Source: Promethearchaeota archaeon (GTDB taxonomy: Archaea > Asgardarchaeota > Thorarchaeia > Thorarchaeales > Thorarchaeaceae). From it: a DNA stretch of 32,000 bases. Below, piece by piece: positions 173 through 24,542 of this stretch. The stretch is taken from assembly GCA_027031765.1 (NCBI GenBank), contig JALVPN010000110.1:60990-92989 (forward strand). The letters run 5' to 3'. The notes beneath the pieces are model-generated. The model made no database searches and was not told the DNA's origin. It was given only the letters and a program-made list of their open reading frames with translations. How positions within the stretch are numbered: position 1 is the stretch's first letter; each line of letters starts with the position of its first letter. The translations under genes and the position numbers were made by a program.

Positions 173-280
173 TGGTGGGCCGCGCCGGATTTGTCGGCCA
201 AGCCCCCGTACTGGGATCCTGTGAACCGGCGACCACCGCACTGTCAATGCGGTATCATAGCCGGGCTAGACCAGCGGCCC
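173..280 (-). tRNA. tRNA-Val(GAC) with a 30-nt intron at 56/57 (intron 193-222)
   Basis: Minus strand reads GGGCCGC TG GTCT AGCCCGGCTA TGAT A CCGCA TT-GAC-AG TGCGG TGGTC GCCGG TTC[ACAGGATCCCAGTACGGGGGCTTGGCCGAC]AAAT CCGGC GCGGCCC A CCA. Removing the bracket gives a full cloverleaf with T-loop TTCAAAT and encoded CCA. Confidence 0.92.
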
Positions 281-306
281 GTCGTAGTCCCCTCCTCCTG
301 CGGGTG

Positions 307-316
307 ATTAAAAAGG
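307..316 (-). promoter_or_regulatory. TATA-box-like element for tRNA-Val(GAC)
   Basis: Minus strand CCTTTTTAAT, about 27-36 nt upstream of the tRNA 5' end at 280. Confidence 0.6.
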
Positions 317-458
317 TTGCGTCTTGGGGTCGGGTCAACTGACTTATGGTGATATGAAGGCAAGAACTGTTGGCCCTCCGATGTAACCGGGCCAGTGAAA
401 TACTTGTCCAAGCTGAACAATGATGACCCATAGAAATACAGGGTGAGGGGTCGGGGGC

Positions 459-1105
459 ATGGGACACTTCACACCTGGAGATAGAGCGTTCTGGTTGTTC
501 GTCGTAGTTGCCTTTGCATGGTCGTGGCTGTTCTGGACACCTCAGTTTCTATGGGACTTCTCTCCGTATGTCGCTCCGTTCGGCCCTTCTGTGGCTACTC
601 TCCTTCTCACATACAAGAAGGGCCGGATGGGACGAAGAATCTACTGCGAAGAGGTGCGGACTTTCGTTTCATTAAAGTCTGGCGTGTGCCAGTCCTTCTA
701 TTGATACCCATTGTGGGGTTCTCTCTCCTAGTGGCTGTTCCCAGTTGGAATCCGGCACCTGACATTGTAGTCCCGCCACAGTCATGGGTCTTCATACCGG
801 TATTCCTCTACATCCTCTTTCTCAGTGTGCCTGTAGCGGAGGAGTTTGGTTGGAGAGGATATGCCCTCGACAGGTTGCAGACAAGGTACAGTGCTCTTGT
901 ATACGGGTAGGAGCATACTATCTGTCCTCCTCCATACCAACCGGTAACCCAATACTTCATCTTCCCAATCGGCGGGACTGGCCTGAGCGGGCAATACTCG
1001 CTCATATTGAATGCAGTCGTTGTGCTGATTGTACTCACGATATGGGGGCCTAGAAGACTGCTCCGCACACAGAATGCCGAATCGGTTTCGTCTGACAGCG
1101 GATAG
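459..1105 (+). pseudogene. CPBP/CAAX (Abi) intramembrane metalloprotease pseudogene
   Basis: The N-terminal membrane part (459-~630) shifts frame into ...AEEFGWRGYALDRLQ (CPBP motif 1). It then jumps to (N)TGRSILSVLLHT..GN (motif 4) in another frame and ends ...VLIVLTIWGPRRLLR...* (TAG 1103-1105). Several frameshifts, and the central motif 2-3 region is missing. Confidence 0.8.
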
Positions 1106-1359
1106 GTGCAGGACTAGAAGCCCTCCCAAACCGTTTCGGTAACCCCCCCGGAGGAGTTATCACCAACAGTAGCGGGCGAGCAGGACTGGTGCTGGCGGTC
1201 CTCCTCTGTGCCCACAACAGCGTGTCCACTGCCTGTCGCGGCACACCATGCCCAAGTATCACTCTTTGGGGCTGACGAGTGGCAGACCGAGCTCTCATGG
1301 CCCTGACTTGTGGTGTACATCACCACCGGACAGGTGTTGGTAGGGCCAGCTGCTACGGG

Positions 1360-2571
1360 TCAGGTGTACAGGGACAGGCCTGCCCTCGCATGTCTGGTCA
1401 AAATCCGCCTTACGAGTTGTCTCTTCAGTCTCTCGTACGTGTCGAGCTCAGCTATCATCTTGTACATTATGTCGCGGATGTACTCGTCCTCATATGCGAG
1501 CCTGAGGACGGTCTCCATGTTCTTCTCGCTCTTGAACACCAGTTTCGCTATGCTCTTCCCGACCTTGAGGTCGTCCATGAAGCGTTTCTTCCAGCGCCCC
1601 TCGTATTCACGGAGCAGCTTGGGGTCTTTCTCCCTGACAGCCCGGTTCAACACGTCGGCTGCAATGATTCCAGACTCAATGGCCATCGGAATCCCCTCCC
1701 CGGAGAATGGGTTCACAAACCCTGCTGCATCGCCCACCAAGAGTGCCCGTCCGACTACAGTCCTTTCTGCAGCCCCCGAGTATGGGAGTCGTGCGGCTGA
1801 GTCAGACACGATTTCTGGCTCGATGTCGTGCTCTTCCACAAAGCTCTCTAGCCACTTGTTGAAGTGCTGACGGATGTTCTGTGCCCTGTCCTGTCGACAC
1901 CCGGCTCCTAGGCTCAGGACACTCCTCTTTGGGAAGCACCAGACGTAGCCATAGGGTACGGGGCCGAAGAAGATGTCTATACTCACTCCTTCCCTGTCGA
2001 ATGGGACGCCACAGATGCGTGTCACGGCGTCCGCCCCGACCTCCACTTCCACTTCTATGGCAACAGCAGCAGTGTCACGCTTCCACCCCTCATAGAACCC
2101 GAGAGACCGCGCCACAGTACTGTTGATGCCGTCAGCACCCACTACGAAGTCTGCTGTCACGGTCCGCCCGTCATCCAGTGCGACCGTGACCTTGTCACTG
2201 TCCTGTGCCACCCCAACAGCCCTCGTCCCGTCCCACAGCTCAGCGCCGGCCTCTCCGGCCTTCCTGAAGAGCAGGTGGTCGAACTCCTCCCGCATGACGA
2301 GGTCGCCTGAGATCTGCGGCCTGATACACTCCACCTTCAGCCCAGAGGGGGAGTAGAACCTCTGTCCATAGACGCGCCTGTGCACCACCTCGTCAATTGG
2401 GAAGTCCAGCAGTTCCCTCACTATGTTCCTTATGCCTCCGGCACATGGCTTGTCTCTCGGAAAACGGGCCTTGTCCATCAGAAGGGTCTGCATACCCTTC
2501 TGTGCACATCTCCGTGCTGTGGTTGAACCTGCCGGCCCTCCACCTACAACTATGACATCATAGTCGCTCAT
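1360..2571 (-). CDS. Geranylgeranyl reductase family FAD-dependent oxidoreductase
   Basis: YDVIVVGGGPAG dinucleotide fold, PRDKPCAGG and VGDAAGFVNPFSGEGI motifs. Likely ATG at 2571 (ORF track extends to 2625). Confidence 0.88.
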   Translation of the reverse strand: MSDYDVIVVGGGPAGSTTARRCAQKGMQTLLMDKARFPRDKPCAGGIRNIVRELLDFPIDEVVHRRVYGQRFYSPSGLKVECIRPQISGDLVMREEFDHLLFRKAGEAGAELWDGTRAVGVAQDSDKVTVALDDGRTVTADFVVGADGINSTVARSLGFYEGWKRDTAAVAIEVEVEVGADAVTRICGVPFDREGVSIDIFFGPVPYGYVWCFPKRSVLSLGAGCRQDRAQNIRQHFNKWLESFVEEHDIEPEIVSDSAARLPYSGAAERTVVGRALLVGDAAGFVNPFSGEGIPMAIESGIIAADVLNRAVREKDPKLLREYEGRWKKRFMDDLKVGKSIAKLVFKSEKNMETVLRLAYEDEYIRDIMYKMIAELDTYERLKRQLVRRILTRHARAGLSLYT

Positions 2572-2640
2572 TGTACTGGCACCACTGCACCCCGTGTGTT
2601 GTGCCGCCACTAATTTATTTTCCATTGTCCGGATGTGTGG

Positions 2641-3144
2641 TCAGCGGCCGGTGCTGCCAAACCCGCCGGCCCCCCTCTCAGACTCTGACAGAGTCTCTAC
2701 AAGTTCGAGTTCTACTCTGGGGACTGGTCTTACCGCAAGCTGGCCGACCCTCATCCCCCTCCTGACCCTGAACACTGTGTTCCCGTGGTTTATCAGGATG
2801 ACCTTGACCTCTCCCCTGTACCCACTGTCAATGGTACCGGGGCCGTTCAGGACGCTGATGCCCTCTTCCAGTGCGAGGCCGCTCCGTGCCCTGACCTGTC
2901 CCTCATACCCCTCGGGTATCTCAAGCGCGATACCTGTCCGCACTGCACGCCACTCGCCAGGTGGCAGGTCGCAGTCCTCTACCGCATACAGGTCAAATGC
3001 TGCGTCCCCATGTCTTGCAAGGGTGGGTACCTGTGCACCGGGCACCAACTTCTTCACACGCACTCTGACAGCGTCCACAGGGCCACTCTCCTCTTCCCGT
3101 GGGGTTGCCAGATGTATAGAACCCTGAGTATTATTCTCCCTCAT
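2641..3144 (-). CDS. dut: Trimeric dUTP diphosphatase
   Basis: AFDLYA, RSGLA, GTIDSGYRGEV and RGAGGFGSTG dUTPase motifs. Start uncertain (3168 or 3144). Confidence 0.92.
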   Translation of the reverse strand: MRENNTQGSIHLATPREEESGPVDAVRVRVKKLVPGAQVPTLARHGDAAFDLYAVEDCDLPPGEWRAVRTGIALEIPEGYEGQVRARSGLALEEGISVLNGPGTIDSGYRGEVKVILINHGNTVFRVRRGMRVGQLAVRPVPRVELELVETLSESERGAGGFGSTGR

Positions 3145-3291
3145 AGTGAATCCCTCTAGTGTGTACATTGCCAGTGCCCGTATTGTACCGTCAGGATTGC
3201 CCCCGGGTCTACAGTCACCATGGCGTCTGCACCAGTCATATAGGGCTGACCCGTCCGGTCATGTTGCCTACAATACGACGAGAAATAGAAG

Positions 3292-3397
3292 TGGTGCCGC
3301 GGGCCGGATTTTTCGGCCGGGAGTCGTGACGAGCCCCCGTGAACCGGCGACGACACGGTCTTCAGCCGTGCGATCTCCCTGACTGATCTACCGCGGC
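3292..3397 (-). tRNA. tRNA-Phe(GAA) with a 29-nt intron at 56/57 (intron 3312-3340)
   Basis: Minus strand reads GCCGCGG TA GATC AGTCAGGGA GATC G CACGG CT-GAA-GA CCGTG TCGTC GCCGG TTC[ACGGGGGCTCGTCACGACTCCCGGCCGAA]AAAT CCGGC CCGCGGC A CCA. Confidence 0.93.
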
Positions 3398-3422
3398 TCA
3401 CTCCACCGACAAACTATAGACG

Positions 3423-3430
3423 ATATAAAG
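3423..3430 (-). promoter_or_regulatory. TATA box for tRNA-Phe
   Basis: Minus strand CTTTATAT, 26-33 nt upstream of the tRNA 5' end at 3397. Confidence 0.65.
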
Positions 3431-3625
3431 CTAGCGCATACGTCGGTGTCACACATACCGATGCGACATGGGTCTGACCTGCACATCGTGTCTGTGGTGC
3501 TATGTGACAGACGTTGTCTGACCTGCTACTGGTGTCCATACAGAACCGCACTGTCCCCCACATGGCGGGAGGTGCACCATACCATACCTATACCATGTCC
3601 AGTGTTGGTGTGGACTGGCTGTCAT

Positions 3626-4144
3626 TCAGCGCAGTTTGTAGTTCGTATAGCTTGCGATGACTGCTGTCACTATTGCTGCAATGTTGGCTGCTAGGGGATA
3701 GATGAACAACGAGTCGAGAAAGGCAAGGGTGGCAAGCCACGACGGGAGGTTACTGATATCAGATATCCCGAAGGGGACAAAGTAGACCATCATGAACACT
3801 GCGGTCAACAGTGCAACGCCGACGAATGGTGGGAGGTCTTCTCGAGACCTTGCAAGAGCGGAGAGTCTGTCAATCCATGACATCTTGCTCTTCTGTCTTT
3901 TGCGTCGCTTCTTCCTTGATGCAATCTCTGCCCACCTGTACATTGCCTCAGCCATGAGGACATACGCTCCTGCCAGGACTGCCGTGACACCCAGTGACAC
4001 AATCAGTTGCAGCTCTACACTCAAGACCTGCACGTATACGGTGGCATGCCATATCAGGGGCACCTGCACCAGTGCTGCTATTCCTATGAATATCATGACA
4101 AGTCCTGGCTTCTCATCGCGTTTCCACCTGACTGGAGGGTTCAT
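3626..4144 (-). CDS. Hypothetical multi-pass membrane protein (about 4 TM segments)
   Basis: 172-aa ORF with four hydrophobic stretches separated by a highly basic loop (SRKKRRKRQKSK). No recognisable family motif. Confidence 0.7.
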   Translation of the reverse strand: MNPPVRWKRDEKPGLVMIFIGIAALVQVPLIWHATVYVQVLSVELQLIVSLGVTAVLAGAYVLMAEAMYRWAEIASRKKRRKRQKSKMSWIDRLSALARSREDLPPFVGVALLTAVFMMVYFVPFGISDISNLPSWLATLAFLDSLFIYPLAANIAAIVTAVIASYTNYKLR

Positions 4145-4224
4145 GTCATTTCACCTGGCTGTTGCCTCGTCCGGGTGGGCGGCGCCCACTTTAACCTTTT
4201 GGAGCACCAGGGCATGTTGAGTCA

Positions 4225-4845
4225 TCATCTCTTCACAGCCATCTGCTTCATGTGCTGTCCCCCCCGCACGGCCTCGACCTCAAACCAGTGACCATGGTCT
4301 TCCATCCGCACCACGTGGAAGTCACACTCTTCCAGTAGTGCAGCAGTCCTTGACATGTCCTGTCCCTGTCTACCATGCATCCCGTATCCGACCTGTGTAA
4401 TGGTGCCGTCAGGCAGAATGCCCCGCATCCTGAAGATGAACACATCCGTGTCGCAGTCAATCCTGCAGGCCTTCACCAAGAGGGCCCCACTACCAGTCAG
4501 CACCCTTGAGACCTCTCTCACCACGTGTCGCTTGACGTCCCATCCGGGCATGAACCCAAGCGAGAACCAAAATGTGGCAATGTCAAATGTGGCGTCCCGG
4601 AAACACAGGGACCTTGCATCTGCAACTACCCATGTGGCCTGTGTTTCGTGGATGCGGGCCTCTCGCACCTCGTCCATTCGGATGTCCACAGCACAGACCC
4701 TGTCCCCTTCGACCCTTGCCACTAGGCCCTCTCCTCCTCCCCCAATGTCAATGATCCGTCCCGGCCCGGTGACCCTGTTAAGGACGACTTCTTGGAGTGG
4801 AGTCCTGAACACCGTGGGACTGGGAGTGCTGTGTGATACGTCCAT
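4225..4845 (-). CDS. Class I SAM-dependent methyltransferase
   Basis: IIDIGGGGEG motif I, AVDI, VADARSLCFRDATFD and EVSRVLTGSG. Likely ATG at 4845 after GGGAG (ORF track starts at 4887). Confidence 0.8.
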   Translation of the reverse strand: MDVSHSTPSPTVFRTPLQEVVLNRVTGPGRIIDIGGGGEGLVARVEGDRVCAVDIRMDEVREARIHETQATWVVADARSLCFRDATFDIATFWFSLGFMPGWDVKRHVVREVSRVLTGSGALLVKACRIDCDTDVFIFRMRGILPDGTITQVGYGMHGRQGQDMSRTAALLEECDFHVVRMEDHGHWFEVEAVRGGQHMKQMAVKR

Positions 4846-4960
4846 GTGGTGCTCCCGCCGTCCGACCGATGATAACTCTGTCGCCACCTTTCACGTCTGG
4901 AGTGTCCATGGGGCCTGCACTAGCGGGTCAGGTCGGTCACAACAGCAGAGATAAGAAGAG

Positions 4961-5067
4961 TGGTGGACCGGGCGAGATTTGAACTCGCGACCTCCTCCAT
5001 GCCAAGGAGGCGATCTCTCCCGGCAGGCCCGGTATGCGGGCCCACAACCGGGCTGATCTACCGGCCC
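4961..5067 (-). tRNA. tRNA-Ala(GGC) with a 30-nt intron at 20/21 in the D-loop (intron 5017-5046)
   Basis: Minus strand reads GGGCCGG TA GATC AGCCCGGT[TGTGGGCCCGCATACCGGGCCTGCCGGGAG]A GATC G CCTCC TT-GGC-AT GGAGG AGGTC GCGAG TTCAAAT CTCGC CCGGTCC A CCA. The G3:U70 Ala identity pair is present. Confidence 0.93.
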
Positions 5068-9466: not shown

Positions 9467-9580
9467 CACTCACTCCTCACACGAGCTTGATGCTCTCTGT
9501 TACCTCGCGCCCGCGGGCTGTCTACGCGCGCAGGCGCGGCGACACTCACTCCTCACACGAGCTTGATGCTCTCTGTTACC
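9467..9580. repeat. Exact 38-bp direct repeat (9467-9504 and 9543-9580) flanking a 38-bp GC-rich spacer
   Basis: CACTCACTCCTCACACGAGCTTGATGCTCTCTGTTACC occurs twice. Copy 2 contains the last codons and stop of aCPSF1. The spacer is 9505-9542. Confidence 0.95.
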
Positions 9581-11472
9581 ATGAGCGCCTTGGTGTCGAC
9601 GTTCATTGCCTTGTGGATTGTCGACGCCAGGTTCATGCACTTGGTGGCCTCCCCGTGGCACGTGAGAATCCTCTCTGGTACGGGGCTCACTCGTTTCACG
9701 AAGTTGAGTATCTGCTTGCGGTCCGAGTGGCCCGAAAAGCCCTCCACGGTCTCCACCTGCATGTTCACCCTGATGACAATAGTCTGTCCCTCTCTGTTCC
9801 TCATCTGGACCTCTTTCCAGCCCTTCTGAATACGTCGGCCCAGCGTCCCCTCTCCCTGGTACGAGACAAAGATGAGGGTGTTCTTTTCGTCGGTCGCCAT
9901 CAGCTTGAAGTATTCCACGCTCGGCCCACCTGCCAGCATCCCAGAAGTCGCCATGATGATGCACGGCTCGCCGTTCACAATCTCCTCTCTCTGTTCCGGG
10001 CTGTCGACCTGCACGAAGATGTCGCTCAGGAACGGGTTCACGCCCTGATGGAATATCATCTCCCTGATCTTCTTGCTGAGGGACTCTGGGTGTGTGGTGT
10101 GTATTGCAGTGGCCTGTGCTATCATGCCCTCGATGTAGACCGGTACACGGGGCATCCTCTTCTTTGATACGAGGTCCTCGATTACTATCATGAGTTCCTG
10201 TGCCCGCCCGACCGCGAGGACGGGGATGAGCACCTTGCCTCCCTTCTCAAGAGTCCTCTTCACTATCGAGGCGAACTTCCGCTCGACCTCCTGCCTAGGT
10301 GGCATCTTGTCTGTCGGGAGGCCATACGTACTCTCTATGATGAGGGTTTCAAGTCTTGGAAATGTGAAGGTCGCCGGCTCGAGGAGCCGTGTGCGCCCGA
10401 ACTTGAAGTCACCCGTGTATGCCAGGTTGTACTGTCCGTCACCAATGTGTAGGTGCACTATGGCAGACCCGAGGATGTGGCCCGCATTGTGCAGGGTCAG
10501 ACGGACATCGGGGGCAATGTCGGTCACCTCACCATAGTTGAGTGGGATTGTGTGCAGGATGGCCTCCTTGACGTCCTTGTCCCTGTACGGCCTGAGCTTG
10601 CCCTCGCGCTCTGCAACATCAAGGTAGTCGAGCTGTAGGAGGGTTGATAGGTTGAGGGTCGGAGCGGTCATGTATACGGGCCCTTTGTACCCGTACTTGA
10701 ACAGGAACGGCACCATCCCTGAGTGGTCAAGGTGCGCATGGGATACTATTACTGCATCGAGTGACTCTATGCTGAACTCGGGCAGGTCGAGCCGTGGGAA
10801 TGCCCTGCTCGGCGTGCCAACGTTGACACCGCAGTCAATCAGGACGCTGGTCTCCGAGGTCTGGAGGAGCATGCACTGCCTCCCGACTTCCCTGAACCCG
10901 CCAAGTGCAGTGAGCCTGATCCAACCATTGTTGAGGATCATCGGTCTGTGAATGCGTCTGCCAATGCTGCGGAACGTCTTGTTCCGTCTGGCTGCCTCGG
11001 ACTGTATTATGTAACGTATCTGCTTGATGAGCTTGCTCTCGATTGGTGGGGTGCGCATTACAGTCGCCCGCCAGAGGGTCTGACGCGTTATCTCCCTCAG
11101 CGTCGCACCACTCCTCCCGATGACCAGTCCGGGTTTCTGTGCCTCTATTATTACCTCTCCCCTAGAGTCGTCAAAGTCGATGGATGTGATCTCGGCCTCA
11201 GCCGGCACGAGCCTCCGCACTGTTTCGGCGACCTCGTCGTGGGGGCGCCGCACCTCAGGTGCCGAACGCACAACTATCCGCTTGCGCATCTTCCTCGCAA
11301 GCGCCTTTATCCGATCTCCATCATCCAATAGTATCTTCGGTGCTTTGGAGTAGATTGCTATCTCTGGCCCCTCGAACTCTACTGAGGTCACCTCTGCTGA
11401 ACGTGGCAGCGCAGCCAGTACTGCCTCCCTGATGTCAACGTATTCGTTGTTGCTGTTTCGCATTAGAGTCAC
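9553..11472 (-). CDS. fttA: aCPSF1/FttA beta-CASP ribonuclease (KH + MBL + beta-CASP), transcription termination factor
   Basis: N-terminal KH region (VEFEGPEIAIY, KPGLVIGRSG), LGGFREVGR, SHAHLDHSG, YTGDF, ESTYG and GFSGHSD. Conserved position downstream of psmB. ATG at 11463 is an alternative start. Confidence 0.95.
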   Translation of the reverse strand: MTLMRNSNNEYVDIREAVLAALPRSAEVTSVEFEGPEIAIYSKAPKILLDDGDRIKALARKMRKRIVVRSAPEVRRPHDEVAETVRRLVPAEAEITSIDFDDSRGEVIIEAQKPGLVIGRSGATLREITRQTLWRATVMRTPPIESKLIKQIRYIIQSEAARRNKTFRSIGRRIHRPMILNNGWIRLTALGGFREVGRQCMLLQTSETSVLIDCGVNVGTPSRAFPRLDLPEFSIESLDAVIVSHAHLDHSGMVPFLFKYGYKGPVYMTAPTLNLSTLLQLDYLDVAEREGKLRPYRDKDVKEAILHTIPLNYGEVTDIAPDVRLTLHNAGHILGSAIVHLHIGDGQYNLAYTGDFKFGRTRLLEPATFTFPRLETLIIESTYGLPTDKMPPRQEVERKFASIVKRTLEKGGKVLIPVLAVGRAQELMIVIEDLVSKKRMPRVPVYIEGMIAQATAIHTTHPESLSKKIREMIFHQGVNPFLSDIFVQVDSPEQREEIVNGEPCIIMATSGMLAGGPSVEYFKLMATDEKNTLIFVSYQGEGTLGRRIQKGWKEVQMRNREGQTIVIRVNMQVETVEGFSGHSDRKQILNFVKRVSPVPERILTCHGEATKCMNLASTIHKAMNVDTKALMVTESIKLV

Positions 11473-17292: not shown

Positions 17293-18651
17293 CTAGTCCC
17301 CATATACCGCAGTCACTACGAGTTCTCTGCATGTACACTCAGTACCCAGCAGCTCGGAGAGCGATGGGCGTGTCCTCCCACCATCACCAGATATCAGCTC
17401 CTTGACATACGTCCCACCCTGGACCCTGAAAATGCCCTCCAGAGTCCTCGGCCCACACCTCTTGAGCTCGACAAGGTACACATGTTTCTCCCGAGTCCTG
17501 TCACTGCGTCTGTGCAGCACCCGGTGTGGTGTCTGCTGCTCAACGGTGACCCCTGAGAGGGCTGATGCAGCCTGTCGGACTGCCACGTCGTCCACATCCT
17601 CTGCTGTTTCTATCACTGCACTGTACTCCTTGATGTTTGCAGAGGCCTCTTCCTTCAGCTTGTGCATGTGATGCCTGTCAGTGAAGCGCAGGTCATGTAC
17701 CTCCACCTTGCCCTCGGCCTCCCTGTTGATGGTCTCCTGCAGCTCGGCGAGGTCTACCGACCTGACCCGCGGCTCAGACACCTCAACAACAAACGGCCGC
17801 CCAGTCCCCAGCATCAACACATCGATGTCCTCTCTCCCAGCAGCATGAAACTTGAAGCGTTTACCCTCGGCCAGTCTCTGCGCCGGCACCCCTATGTACT
17901 CTGCAATGGAGTCTGGGTATTTCCGCCCGGTGCCACCACAACTGTCGCACCCCTTCCCACGACACTCGGGACAGTCCCATCTGCTCTGTGGGATCCCACG
18001 CTGGAGCTTCTTGTACCGGCCGTATATGAATATCGGGCTGACCTGCAGCTTGACATCATGTCCTGCAACATCGTAGACTATCACCATCTGGGGGGACTCG
18101 AAGTCCACAGGCCTACTGAGCCGCCGCTGCAGGGCGCGTCCTATCTCTCGGTTGATTTCCGAGCGTATCGTCTCTCCATGGACAATCCCATGCTGCCCAC
18201 GAAGCTCGTCCTCCCGCTCTGCAAGGTTGGGCGGTGGGATGCTCCCGACAAGAAAGCTGTCAAACTCGTAGCCGTCGACTGCCAAGAGGATGTCCTCTAC
18301 GATGCGGTTGATACTGTCGAATATTGGGACGCCACTGACTGAGCACAACCAGCATGTCCTCTCACTGTCGAACGGGATGCCGTACTTCTCTGCAAGGGCC
18401 CGTGCTGGCGCAAACATCCCGTTTTCAGCAAGTGTCCTCACCAGTCCGCGCCCCCACTCGTCCTTTCTCTCCCTTATGGCCGCGTCGGCAAGCATCATGA
18501 GGACCATCTTTATTGCATGCCCCCGTTCCCTGTTCGTAGTACCGGTTCCCAGCCACGCGACCTGTCTGCCCAGGCAGAAGTCGCATAGTGGTCGCTCGTG
18601 GAGAATTGCCTCGGCCACACGTAGGAGCTCAAGCCTGTCGCTCTCTGTCAT
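17293..18651 (-). CDS. pus10: tRNA pseudouridine(54/55) synthase Pus10
   Basis: PLCDFCLGR and CWLC N-terminal Zn/THUMP region, GRYKKLQRGIPQSRW, catalytic FHAAGREDIDV and GGTYVKELISGD. Confidence 0.95.
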   Translation of the reverse strand: MTESDRLELLRVAEAILHERPLCDFCLGRQVAWLGTGTTNRERGHAIKMVLMMLADAAIRERKDEWGRGLVRTLAENGMFAPARALAEKYGIPFDSERTCWLCSVSGVPIFDSINRIVEDILLAVDGYEFDSFLVGSIPPPNLAEREDELRGQHGIVHGETIRSEINREIGRALQRRLSRPVDFESPQMVIVYDVAGHDVKLQVSPIFIYGRYKKLQRGIPQSRWDCPECRGKGCDSCGGTGRKYPDSIAEYIGVPAQRLAEGKRFKFHAAGREDIDVLMLGTGRPFVVEVSEPRVRSVDLAELQETINREAEGKVEVHDLRFTDRHHMHKLKEEASANIKEYSAVIETAEDVDDVAVRQAASALSGVTVEQQTPHRVLHRRSDRTREKHVYLVELKRCGPRTLEGIFRVQGGTYVKELISGDGGRTRPSLSELLGTECTCRELVVTAVYGD

Positions 18652-20394: not shown

Positions 20395-21732
20395 TTGTAC
20401 ACTGTGCCTGATGCGGAGCAGCTCGTAGGAATGGAGCTCTACACCACTGGCATTCCGGGTTTCGGTGGCCATCTAAAACGCAGGTTCGATGACTTTGTTG
20501 TGGAGGAAATCCCCACAGGCGGCCCACGCCTCTCAGTGAGGCCTTGGGAGCCCCGGCCGTGTGGTCCACCAGCGGGTGACCCAAAGGCCCGCTATGTCCA
20601 CTTCACACTACAGAAACGTGGCCTCTCCACGCTGGACGTAGCAATGATCCTCGCCTCGGAGTTGGGAATACCACATCATCTGGTGATGTATGCGGGGATA
20701 AAGGACAAGCGGGCGGTCACCGTCCAGCGTATGTGTGTCCCTGCACGCTGTGCGGCGCAGCTCGTACAGTTACGGCTCCCCAATATCATGGTGTCTGACC
20801 CGTGCTATTCGAGGACACCCCTGCGGAGCGGCGACCTCTGGGGGAACCACTTCAGGATTCGCGTCCGGGGCATTGAGGTACCGTGTTCGGAAGCACTGCA
20901 ATGCGTTGAGGCCCTCCGTGATGTCCCTCTGCTGAACTACTACGGAGTACAGAGGTTCGGCGTGACCCGTCCGTACACCCACCTTGTTGGTAAGGCTTTG
21001 GTGCTCCGTGACTACGAGGCTGCAGTCAGGGCAATGCTCACGACCACGAACAGTTTCGAGCCACCAGGGCTCACCGATGTGCGTCTGCGTCTGAGTGAGA
21101 GACTTGCCCCTACCGAGAGCATGCTCGCGGTCTTTCCCAAGGACATGCGGCACGAACGTACAGTCCTCCACTACCTGATACGGCATCCTGGTGCATTCGA
21201 AAAGGCACTACGGCGGATACCCTCCCGCATCCGTACCCTTTTTGTACACTCGTACCAGTCGTTCCTGTTCAACCGGATTATCAGCCGTCGTGCAGCCGTC
21301 GGAGCACCACTTGTCCAGCCTGTGCCCGGCGACTTCATTGTGGAAGCACGACGTGCACATGCCGGCCGTGACTCTTGGAGGCTTGTAACAGACCAGTCCC
21401 TTGAGGAGTGCAGGTCTCTTGTGTTGTCTGGCGACTATGTGCTTGCCGCACCGGTGCCAGGCTACGCGACAAAGCTCCCGCCATCATGGCAGTCCGACAT
21501 GGTGCGAGAAGTCCTTGATGAGGAGGGCATATTACTGGCACAGTTCCATAACTCACGGTACCGTGCCCATGACACCCCGGGAGGCCTCCATCCAGTCACC
21601 ATGCGTCCCGAGCACATGGTGTCCTACTGTGAAGGGGATGTCCTCGTGGTCGAGTTCGCTCTCCAGAAGGGCTCCTACGCAACAGTTGTGTTACGCGAGC
21701 TGATGAAGAACCATCCGGTAAACCGTGTATGA
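20395..21732 (+). CDS. truD: tRNA pseudouridine(13) synthase TruD
   Basis: DFVVEE, YAGIKDKRAVT (catalytic Asp), GNHFRIRVR, NYYGVQRFG and GSYATVVLRE. Confidence 0.94.
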   Translation: MYTVPDAEQLVGMELYTTGIPGFGGHLKRRFDDFVVEEIPTGGPRLSVRPWEPRPCGPPAGDPKARYVHFTLQKRGLSTLDVAMILASELGIPHHLVMYAGIKDKRAVTVQRMCVPARCAAQLVQLRLPNIMVSDPCYSRTPLRSGDLWGNHFRIRVRGIEVPCSEALQCVEALRDVPLLNYYGVQRFGVTRPYTHLVGKALVLRDYEAAVRAMLTTTNSFEPPGLTDVRLRLSERLAPTESMLAVFPKDMRHERTVLHYLIRHPGAFEKALRRIPSRIRTLFVHSYQSFLFNRIISRRAAVGAPLVQPVPGDFIVEARRAHAGRDSWRLVTDQSLEECRSLVLSGDYVLAAPVPGYATKLPPSWQSDMVREVLDEEGILLAQFHNSRYRAHDTPGGLHPVTMRPEHMVSYCEGDVLVVEFALQKGSYATVVLRELMKNHPVNRV

Positions 21733-22928: not shown

Positions 22929-24197
22929 ATGGTTCAACTGACATTCCTAGGTTCGTGTCAGGAGATTGGGCGTTCGGGGTTCCTTGTGACCGGCCACGAT
23001 GAGAGCATCCTCGTCGACTACGGTGTCAAGTTCCAGAACCCTGTCGGTCTGCCCGTTCCCATCAGCACAGATGACCTCCAAGGAGTCATTCTGACACATG
23101 CACACCTCGACCACTCAGGTGCAGTCCCACAGGTGCTCAGCGATTCGGATGTCGTTTCGCTGTTCTGCACCCCCGCCACCCGAGACCTCACAGCACTACT
23201 GCTCCATGACATGTTCAAGGTCACAACAAGCCCTCTGCCTTACGCTCACCACGATATACGGCGCGTCTTTGACCAGTGTCAGCCCACTGCCTACGAGGAC
23301 ACGTTGCCATTGGGGAGAGAGTTTGAGATGACCCTGTTCAATGCGGGTCATATCCCCGGTAGCGCCATGGTGTCCCTCAGCATCGACGGCCGCAGAATCC
23401 TCTTCACCGGTGACTTCAATGCCCTCCCCTCCCGTCTACATGCCGGGGTGCGCCTGAACCTCCCAAGGCACGATGTGGTCGTCACCGAGAGCACATACGC
23501 ACGCCGTGTGAACCCACCACGCGAGGAGATCGAAAGGGCACTGGTGGCCAGTATCATTGACACGATGGACCGTGGTGGTGTTGCCCTCATCCCGGCATTT
23601 GCGGTGGGCCGCTCGCAGGAGATAATGTGCATTCTGGAACAGTACGGGATCACACGAGACTATCCAGTATACGTTGATGGTCTTGCCCGTGATGTCAACG
23701 AGATTGTTATGCAGCACCCGAACTACATTGCATGCCCTCGCGAGTTCGAACGCGCTGTCAGACACACGCGCCTGATCCATGACAGCCGTGACAGGCACCG
23801 GGTCATCCACAAGGGCGGGGTGATAATCTCACCGGCCGGGATGCTCAAGGGCGGGGCCTCCAAGATGCTCTTTGAGAACCTCTACGATGACCCGTCCAAC
23901 ACAATCATCCTTGTGAGCTTCCAGATCCCGGGCACTCCGGGTGCGGAGCTCTTGTCGACTAGGCAGGTCACACTGAACCGGAGGGTGCTCCGTGTCAGGG
24001 CAGAAGTGCGGTACCATCACCTGAGCAGCCATTCGGACACAAACGGCCTGATGGAGCTGCTCATGCGGGTCCCCGGAGACCCGGAGTTCTACGTCGTCCA
24101 TGGAGAACCAGAATCGTGTGATGCCCTAGCCCAGGCCCTTACAGACAGTGGGCACCAGGCCTATGTGCCTGAGATGGGGGACTCATTCGAAGTCTAG
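22929..24197 (+). CDS. MBL-fold beta-CASP ribonuclease without KH domains (aCPSF2-like)
   Basis: LGSCQEIGRS, LTHAHLDHSG, AGHIPGS, TGDF, ESTY, AGMLKGG and HLSSHSD. Confidence 0.88.
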   Translation: MVQLTFLGSCQEIGRSGFLVTGHDESILVDYGVKFQNPVGLPVPISTDDLQGVILTHAHLDHSGAVPQVLSDSDVVSLFCTPATRDLTALLLHDMFKVTTSPLPYAHHDIRRVFDQCQPTAYEDTLPLGREFEMTLFNAGHIPGSAMVSLSIDGRRILFTGDFNALPSRLHAGVRLNLPRHDVVVTESTYARRVNPPREEIERALVASIIDTMDRGGVALIPAFAVGRSQEIMCILEQYGITRDYPVYVDGLARDVNEIVMQHPNYIACPREFERAVRHTRLIHDSRDRHRVIHKGGVIISPAGMLKGGASKMLFENLYDDPSNTIILVSFQIPGTPGAELLSTRQVTLNRRVLRVRAEVRYHHLSSHSDTNGLMELLMRVPGDPEFYVVHGEPESCDALAQALTDSGHQAYVPEMGDSFEV

Positions 24198-24465: not shown

Positions 24466-24542
24466 TGGTGGGCCGGGGGAGACTCGAACTCCCGATATCC
24501 TCCGCGTGAGGGAGGCATCATAGCCAACTAGATCACCGGCCC
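24466..24542 (-). tRNA. tRNA-Val(CAC), intron-less
   Basis: GGGCCGG TG ATCT AGTTGGCTA TGAT G CCTCC CT-CAC-GC GGAGG ATATC GGGAG TTCGAGT CTCCC CCGGCCC A CCA. Confidence 0.94.

Follow-up and report, generated by a model that had tools for sequence, protein, structure and literature searches.

Of the four tRNA genes in the 32,000-nucleotide stretch of archaeal DNA analyzed here (the window), three are interrupted at non-canonical sites, and the inserts are very probably ordinary bulge-helix-bulge (BHB) tRNA introns, spliced by protein and processed by a splicing endonuclease (EndA) of broad specificity. The window covers positions 60990-92989 of contig C110 of the source genome, labeled G000 (2.95 Mb, 229 contigs, 59% G+C, estimated 95% complete); genomes of relatives and genera of the family are labeled Gxxx and gN, respectively. 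The DNA was present in only one public run, a hydrothermal-vent metagenome that is probably the source of the assembly, and in no listed RNA run. The geranylgeranyl-reductase-like gene between the Val and Phe tRNA genes has Candidatus Thorarchaeota metagenome-assembled genomes (MAGs) as its nearest named relatives, at 60-62% identity. Judged from these matches, G000 is a Thorarchaeota-like Asgard MAG from a hydrothermal vent, the Asgard and Thorarchaeota origin being that proposed in a preliminary description of this DNA.

Interrupted tRNA genes of the window

The Val(GAC) and Phe(GAA) genes were detected neither by ARAGORN, with or without the -i option, nor by Rfam RF00005. Applied to the window, the two tools returned only Val(CAC) and a truncated Ala(GGC), and no Rfam family other than tRNA was found there. 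Since genes split in the T-loop are invisible to standard finders, BHB candidates (strict and with one mismatch) were listed genome-wide, spliced in silico and re-scanned with ARAGORN. The resulting census was supplemented by a search on acceptor-stem and T-stem pairing. Under the splice rule, positions X-5 to X-2 of the exon are paired with L-5 to L-2 of the intron, and (X-1, X, i1) and (iL-1, iL, X+1) remain as bulges; the canonical Ser(CGA) intron in G000 served to validate the rule. Relaxed-scan loci at C107:8940-9140 and C57:2020-2220 and on C215, C114, C73, C121 and C183 were rejected, lying within coding sequence and giving poor cloverleaves.

The three interrupted genes of the window were read directly from the reverse strand and then rebuilt with the BHB and ARAGORN pipeline. 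Both readings bear out the interruption of three of the four genes at non-canonical sites, with the 37/38 position empty of introns in all three (Table 1). The genes all encode CCA. Val(GAC) and Phe have an identical T-arm, GCCGG-TTC|AAAT-CCGGC, and introns at the same bond with 3′ ends GGCCGA(C/A), as first described. Likewise, neither Ala(GGC), with T-stem GCGAG and its intron in the D-loop, nor Val(CAC), with T-stem GGGAG, carries a T-loop intron.

Table 1. Positions of tRNA genes, introns and other annotated genes in the window
Feature	Positions	Strand	Details
tRNA-Val(GAC) with CCA	173-280	-	Exons 223-280 + 173-192; spliced, a perfect 78-nt cloverleaf
Val(GAC) intron	193-222	-	30 nt; 56/57 (T-loop, C56|A57); relaxed HBh' motif
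tRNA-Phe(GAA) with CCA	3292-3397	-	Exons 3341-3397 + 3292-3311; spliced, a 77-nt cloverleaf
Phe(GAA) intron	3312-3340	-	29 nt; 56/57 (T-loop), same bond as Val(GAC); relaxed HBh' motif
tRNA-Ala(GGC) with CCA	4961-5067	-	Exons 5047-5067 + 4961-5016; G3:U70; T-stem GCGAG
Ala(GGC) intron	5017-5046	-	30 nt; 20/21 (D-loop, U20|A21)
FttA/aCPSF1 termination factor	9553-11472	-	
Pus10 (T-loop pseudouridine 54/55 synthase)	17293-18651	-	
TruD	20395-21732	+	
Second beta-CASP nuclease	22929-24197	+	
tRNA-Val(CAC), uninterrupted comparison gene	24466-24542	-	58.4 bits to RF00005; T-stem GGGAG

Removal of each intron gives back a canonical cloverleaf. Spliced Val(GAC) matches intron-less Val-GAC orthologues, spliced Phe closely resembles the orthologous Phe genes of the family that have no intron, and spliced Ala(GGC), which keeps G3:U70, has exactly the sequence of the uninterrupted Ala-GGC genes in G063, G060 and G054. 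No second intact copy of Val-GAC, Phe-GAA or Ala-GGC was found in G000, and each of these three anticodons is therefore represented, as far as found, by the window copy alone. The failure of standard tRNA finders on these genes, together with the fragmentation of the MAG into 229 contigs, could be taken to mean that the inserts mark decaying tRNA pseudogenes or artefacts of metagenome-bin assembly. This is extremely improbable: the exons show perfect conservation and can form the cloverleaf, intact second copies were not found, a splice motif with compensatory changes is present at every insert, and the same architecture occurs in independent assemblies of relatives.

Splice motif and folding

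All three introns of the window have a central helix with four of four pairs and 3-nt bulges. In the Val(GAC) intron the central helix is CGGU/GCCG, with bulges UC|A and AC|A and an intron stem of 4 bp. The Phe intron has the same central helix, with bulges UC|A and AA|A and an intron stem of 6 bp; the Ala(GGC) intron has CCCG/CGGG, with bulges GU|U and AG|A and an intron stem of 9 bp. The central helix of the 56/57 introns covaries between genomes, T-stem C51 standing with an intron G in G000 and T51 with an intron A in G013, G014 and genus g8. This compensatory change (C51-G to U51-A) supports the central-helix fold.

The minimum-energy fold computed with ViennaRNA was the helix-bulge-helix for both Val and Phe, with a frequency of 0.75 for the Phe fold. 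For the Ala precursor, ViennaRNA favours a neighbouring register over the 30-nt 20/21 solution, which leaves the D-loop AGCCCGGUA. Spliced Ala is the same as its intron-less orthologues (e.g. G063, G060), and the 20/21 boundaries are therefore fixed independently of the motif. A 26-nt Ala register with central helix CGGU/GCCG was dropped, as it gives a 13-nt D-loop and the intron-less orthologues confirm the 30-nt intron at 20/21.

Intron census of the source genome

Across G000, 44 tRNA genes were found, 26 of them interrupted (∼59%) by 30 introns, or ∼0.7 introns per gene. Non-canonical sites hold 21 of the 30, in line with the heavy non-canonical load that the preliminary description had expected. 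Interruption is genome-wide, and the three window genes are therefore a sample of a habit of this genome and not a special locus.

T-loop introns are located at 53/54 in Gly-CCC, at 56/57 in Val-GAC and Phe only, at 58/59 in Tyr, Trp and Pro-GGG, and at 59/60 in Thr-CGU, Leu-UAA, Ser-GCU, Lys-UUU, Asn and Arg-UCU. The D-loop is interrupted in Ala-GGC, Pro-UGG, Pro-CGG, His, initiator Met and Arg-UCU, and Asn and Lys-CUU have introns at 43/44. Ten of the 11 T-loop introns checked have a central helix of four of four pairs; the twelfth, of Arg-UCU, has three of four when paired by hand. Genes for Arg-CCU and Ile2-CAU were not found in the census. An assignment of the Lys-CUU intron to 37/38 was rejected, the central helix there having none of four pairs, and the intron was reassigned to 43/44.

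The neighbouring Asn and Lys-CUU genes (C144:88675-88996, +) both carry the 43/44 intron with similar flanks (UUGU| ... |UGGYC) and three of four central-helix pairs. The tRNA-Trp gene (C217:23056-23219, -) holds a 57-nt intron at ∼37/38 and a 29-nt intron at 58/59, both containing GCGUGUUC; the 57-nt intron also shares CUGCGUGU with the D-loop intron of Pro-UGG.

Splicing endonuclease

Two EndA paralogues are present in G000. The alpha protein (P0002), encoded at a contig end, matches the catalytic alpha subunit of A. pernix EndA (3P1Z_B, E = 5e-36) and has AVY, the DHAP histidine and VRKR. Its segment FGQPVGIRKPK aligns to YGQPLDVEKPR, residues 36-46 of 3P1Z_B, placing query Lys9 on K44 of the specificity loop (CSL/L1), a residue whose role in that loop has been described (PMC5829648). 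The beta protein (P0001:270-447) lacks the catalytic histidine and is the structural subunit. It occupies the last ∼178 codons of a 447-codon frame (L002:466-1809; C40:171787-173130, +), the upstream 270 codons of which are of low complexity and look like a spurious extension.

Typed from these two paralogues, G000 encodes a predicted two-subunit (alpha-beta)2 EndA with the specificity (L1) loop and its lysine. It resembles the A. pernix enzyme (3P1Z) and those described by Kaneta et al. (2018) in having two paralogues, with the catalytic Tyr, His and Lys in one subunit, the His lost in the other and the loop lysine at K44. It differs from 3P1Z in being known from sequence only, with the alpha gene incomplete and beta lying within a longer frame. 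Asgard (alpha-beta)2 EndA with the L1 loop, including that of Thorarchaeota SMTZ1-83, has been reported (Kaneta et al., 2018, PMC5829648).

In the splicing route proposed for the window genes, exon bases X-5 to X-2 of the precursor would pair with the four intron bases before the last two, forming two 3-nt bulges. The heterotetrameric (alpha-beta)2 EndA, with its specificity loop and lysine, would then cut each bulge behind its second base, and a ligase would join the exons. The enzyme probably has a broad substrate range, and introns would persist wherever a cleavable motif can form.

Several points weigh against this account. Both 56/57 introns lack an outer exon helix (h = 0) and have the relaxed HBh' form; they would therefore need an enzyme of broad specificity, an activity that is itself predicted. 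The alpha EndA gene is interrupted by the contig end, its N-terminus lying beyond the available sequence. Elsewhere in the genome the motif fits poorly in initiator Met at 18/19, in the variable loop of Thr-GGU and in Asp (two of four central-helix pairs). Finally, splicing of the window introns is a prediction from DNA.

Intron turnover in the family

Relatives were searched in 24 genomes for Phe and in 60 for Val-GAC and Ala-GGC, from 16 genera overall, and up to 30 loci per gene were fetched and re-analyzed. The tRNA-Phe gene has its intron in the D-loop in g5, at 37/38 in g2, g13 and g16, in the variable loop in G020, at 53/54 in G002, at 56/57 in G000 and G014, and at 59/60 in g4, g7, G007 and G023; it has none in eight genomes. 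Val-GAC is mostly intron-less, with introns at 56/57 in G000 and G013, at 58/59 in G019, in the variable loop in G021 and at 37/38 in g7. Val-UAC is interrupted at 56/57 in three g8 genomes. Ala-GGC has the 20/21 intron in g1, g2, g5 and g10, with orthologous introns in G009, G023, G019, G001 and G016; it is interrupted at another D-loop site in g4 and has no intron in at least 10 genomes.

Presence and position thus vary between and within genera, so introns have been gained and lost often. Mapped onto the FttA tree, the states require a minimum of at least 11 changes for Phe (seven states, 23 tips), five for Val-GAC and four for Ala-GGC, and the Phe state differs between species within g3, g6, g8 and g10. 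Intron turnover in the family is real and fast, also between close relatives, which agrees with the reading first proposed.

The 31-nt introns of G001 and G016, two species of genus g2, occupy the same Ala-GGC 20/21 site and are essentially unalignable, indicating either very rapid divergence or replacement in place.

An ancestor of the family that already held most of the introns, followed by precise losses and no recent gains, would also produce a patchwork. The Ala-GGC 20/21 intron, with 3′ ends of the CGGGAA type in at least four genera (g1, g2, g5, g10), and the clearly homologous 59/60 Phe introns of g7 and g8 point in that direction. As a general account, loss from an intron-rich ancestor is nevertheless improbable. 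The ancestral Phe gene would need six different introns simultaneously, states differ within g10, g8, g3 and g6, same-site introns can be unalignable (G001 and G016), and many terminal-branch gains have been reconstructed in Asgard archaea (Goswami et al., 2026, bioRxiv 10.64898/2026.10.13.758758).

T-arm sequence and intron site

In G000 the T-stem GCCGG occurs in two of the 44 tRNA genes, and these two hold the only 56/57 introns (1 in 946 by simple combinatorics); Val-GAC and Phe, the sole GCCGG pair, are also neighbours. The sorting of sites by stem is clean in this genome, 56/57 going with GCCGG, 58/59 with GGGAG and 59/60 with GCGGG, GAGGG, GGAGG or CCCGG. Over the family, all seven 56/57 introns seen so far are in GCYGG arms (Val-GAC and Phe of G000, Val-GAC of G013, Phe of G014 and Val-UAC of the three g8 genomes).

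Much of this sorting follows from structure. For 59/60 introns the T-stem serves as outer helix and U54-R57 as central helix, and the site is thus available in any tRNA. The outer helix at 58/59 requires a slipped register (49-52 with 60-63), which GGGA/UCUC permits (h = 4). No structural reason was seen for the GCYGG arm at 56/57. T-stems can match those of hosts and yet lack a T-loop intron, as do GGGAG in Val-CAC, Leu-CAA and Ser-UGA and GCUGG in Val-UAC. In relatives the GCYGG arm itself carries introns at 58/59, at 59/60, in the variable loop or at 37/38, or none. A determining role of the T-arm sequence for the site is therefore not supported, this being an outcome named in advance as speaking against that idea. 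Of the sequence-targeted spread put forward in the preliminary description, the restriction of 56/57 introns to GCYGG arms stands so far; the same arm also hosts other sites or none, and recent copying is unsupported.

The dedicated mobility system proposed with it is not present. The window introns are non-coding hairpins of 29-30 nt without coding capacity, contain no intron-encoded endonuclease, reverse transcriptase or ribozyme core, and have nothing mobile associated with them.

Homology-guided copying, in which an intron moved with its T-arm context between genes sharing GCYGG-TTC/AAAT-CCGGC and all 56/57 introns stem from one insertion, was weighed separately. The route would be gene conversion between the neighbours Val-GAC and Phe and between Val isoacceptors. 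Besides the seven GCYGG arms, it is favoured by the synteny of Val-GAC and Phe, ∼3 kb apart, with the 56/57 intron in both (G000), in Val-GAC only (G013) or in Phe only (G014, sister of G013). The Val and Phe introns of G000 have the 9-mer ACGGGGGCU in common, and the Val-GAC intron is 63-67% identical to the g8 Val-UAC introns, with identical acceptor stems. Stretches of 8 nt or more are common to 13 intron pairs in G000; the corresponding figure was 3.5 after dinucleotide shuffling and 3-7 for controls that were reversed, complemented or reverse-complemented. Three adjacent tRNA pairs have the same non-canonical site (Val-GAC/Phe, Asn/Lys-CUU and Thr-CGU/Arg-UCU; permutation P ∼0.03), although this neighbour test and the k-mer test are post hoc.

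Against copying, no pair among 29 G000 introns reaches 80% identity, the maximum being 76% (Trp and Pro-GGG, 58/59), and beyond the ends constrained by the splice helix the intron of Val and that of Phe align at no more than 15 of 30 positions. For the 56/57 introns, alignments restricted to the unconstrained cores gave P values of 0.02-0.1, uncorrected for 21 pairs. Within g8, even introns of the same gene (G070 against G062 and G066) show no detectable likeness, and sequence comparison therefore lacks the power to speak for or against copying. The neighbours Val-GAC and Phe differ in site in most genomes read for both (e.g. G006, G009, G012, G013, G021, G023), in G009, G013 and G023 despite identical T-stems. 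On balance a single copied origin of the 56/57 introns is unlikely, if still worth considering.

A broader form of the idea is that tRNA introns in this family spread locally by homology, each moving with its flanking arm between genes that are neighbours or similar in sequence, as may have happened at 56/57 in Val-GAC, Phe and Val-UAC and at 43/44 in Asn and Lys-CUU, after which the hairpin would diverge so fast as to leave only k-mer traces and the common site. We consider this doubtful. If true, it would provide a concrete route of arrival for Asgard tRNA introns, which was left open by the 2026 census of Goswami et al.

The 58/59 introns of Tyr (C40:175171-175276, -), Trp (C217:23056-23219, -) and Pro-GGG (C40:79324-79460, -) all lie in a GGGAG T-arm. 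At 72-76% identity they are the most alike of the cross-isotype introns in G000, and they share GGGGCUCCCC or CCGACGGGAC. By sequence likeness, these three introns are a better candidate for shared origin than the Val and Phe pair.

Comparison with known systems

The reading of the window introns as ordinary BHB introns at non-canonical sites places them in a documented setting. Heavy loads of non-canonical introns and repeated gains at BHB sites have been reported in Asgard archaea (Valentin-Alvarado et al., 2024, PMC11291895; Goswami et al., 2026). Copying, mobile elements and reverse transcription were examined across 90 Asgard genomes, and no general route was found (Goswami et al., 2026). 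As in those studies, the introns described here have short BHB motifs, lie at D-arm, T-arm and variable-loop sites, may be several per gene and are often missed by annotators; gains are repeated, and near-identical families across tRNA types are absent. The published cases differ in lineage and load, being centred on Atabeyarchaeia and Jordiarchaeia (Freyr-/Jordiarchaeaceae) with ∼2.2 introns per gene, against ∼0.7 in G000. The main text of the Goswami preprint does not contain the word Thorarchae-.

In Thermoproteales, non-canonical and multiple tRNA introns have been described and intron transposition has been proposed (Sugahara, 2008; Fujishima, 2010). G000 is similar in its splice-motif logic, in sites such as 20/21, 53/54, 56/57, 58/59 and 59/60, and in its predicted (alpha-beta)2 EndA with a specificity loop. 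It differs from transposing introns of the Thermoproteales type in that none of its 29 introns is at least 80% identical to one in another tRNA type, and in that the lineage is Asgard and not TACK.

The locus thus adds a Thorarchaeota-like lineage to the documented intron-rich cases, and tRNA-Phe, with seven intron states in one family, offers a very clear example of turnover. The overall picture is unchanged and the novelty first supposed does not hold, as heavy non-canonical loads, recurrent gain at cleavable sites and the Asgard (alpha-beta)2 enzyme had already been published (PMC5829648, PMC11291895, bioRxiv 10.64898/2026.10.13.758758).

Other features of the window

The Pus10, TruD, FttA/aCPSF1 and beta-CASP nuclease genes (Table 1) have no evident link to the introns. 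A membrane-protein-like frame at 518-910 (+) stops and seems to run on in another frame to ∼1129, and positions 518-1129 may be a frameshifted gene.

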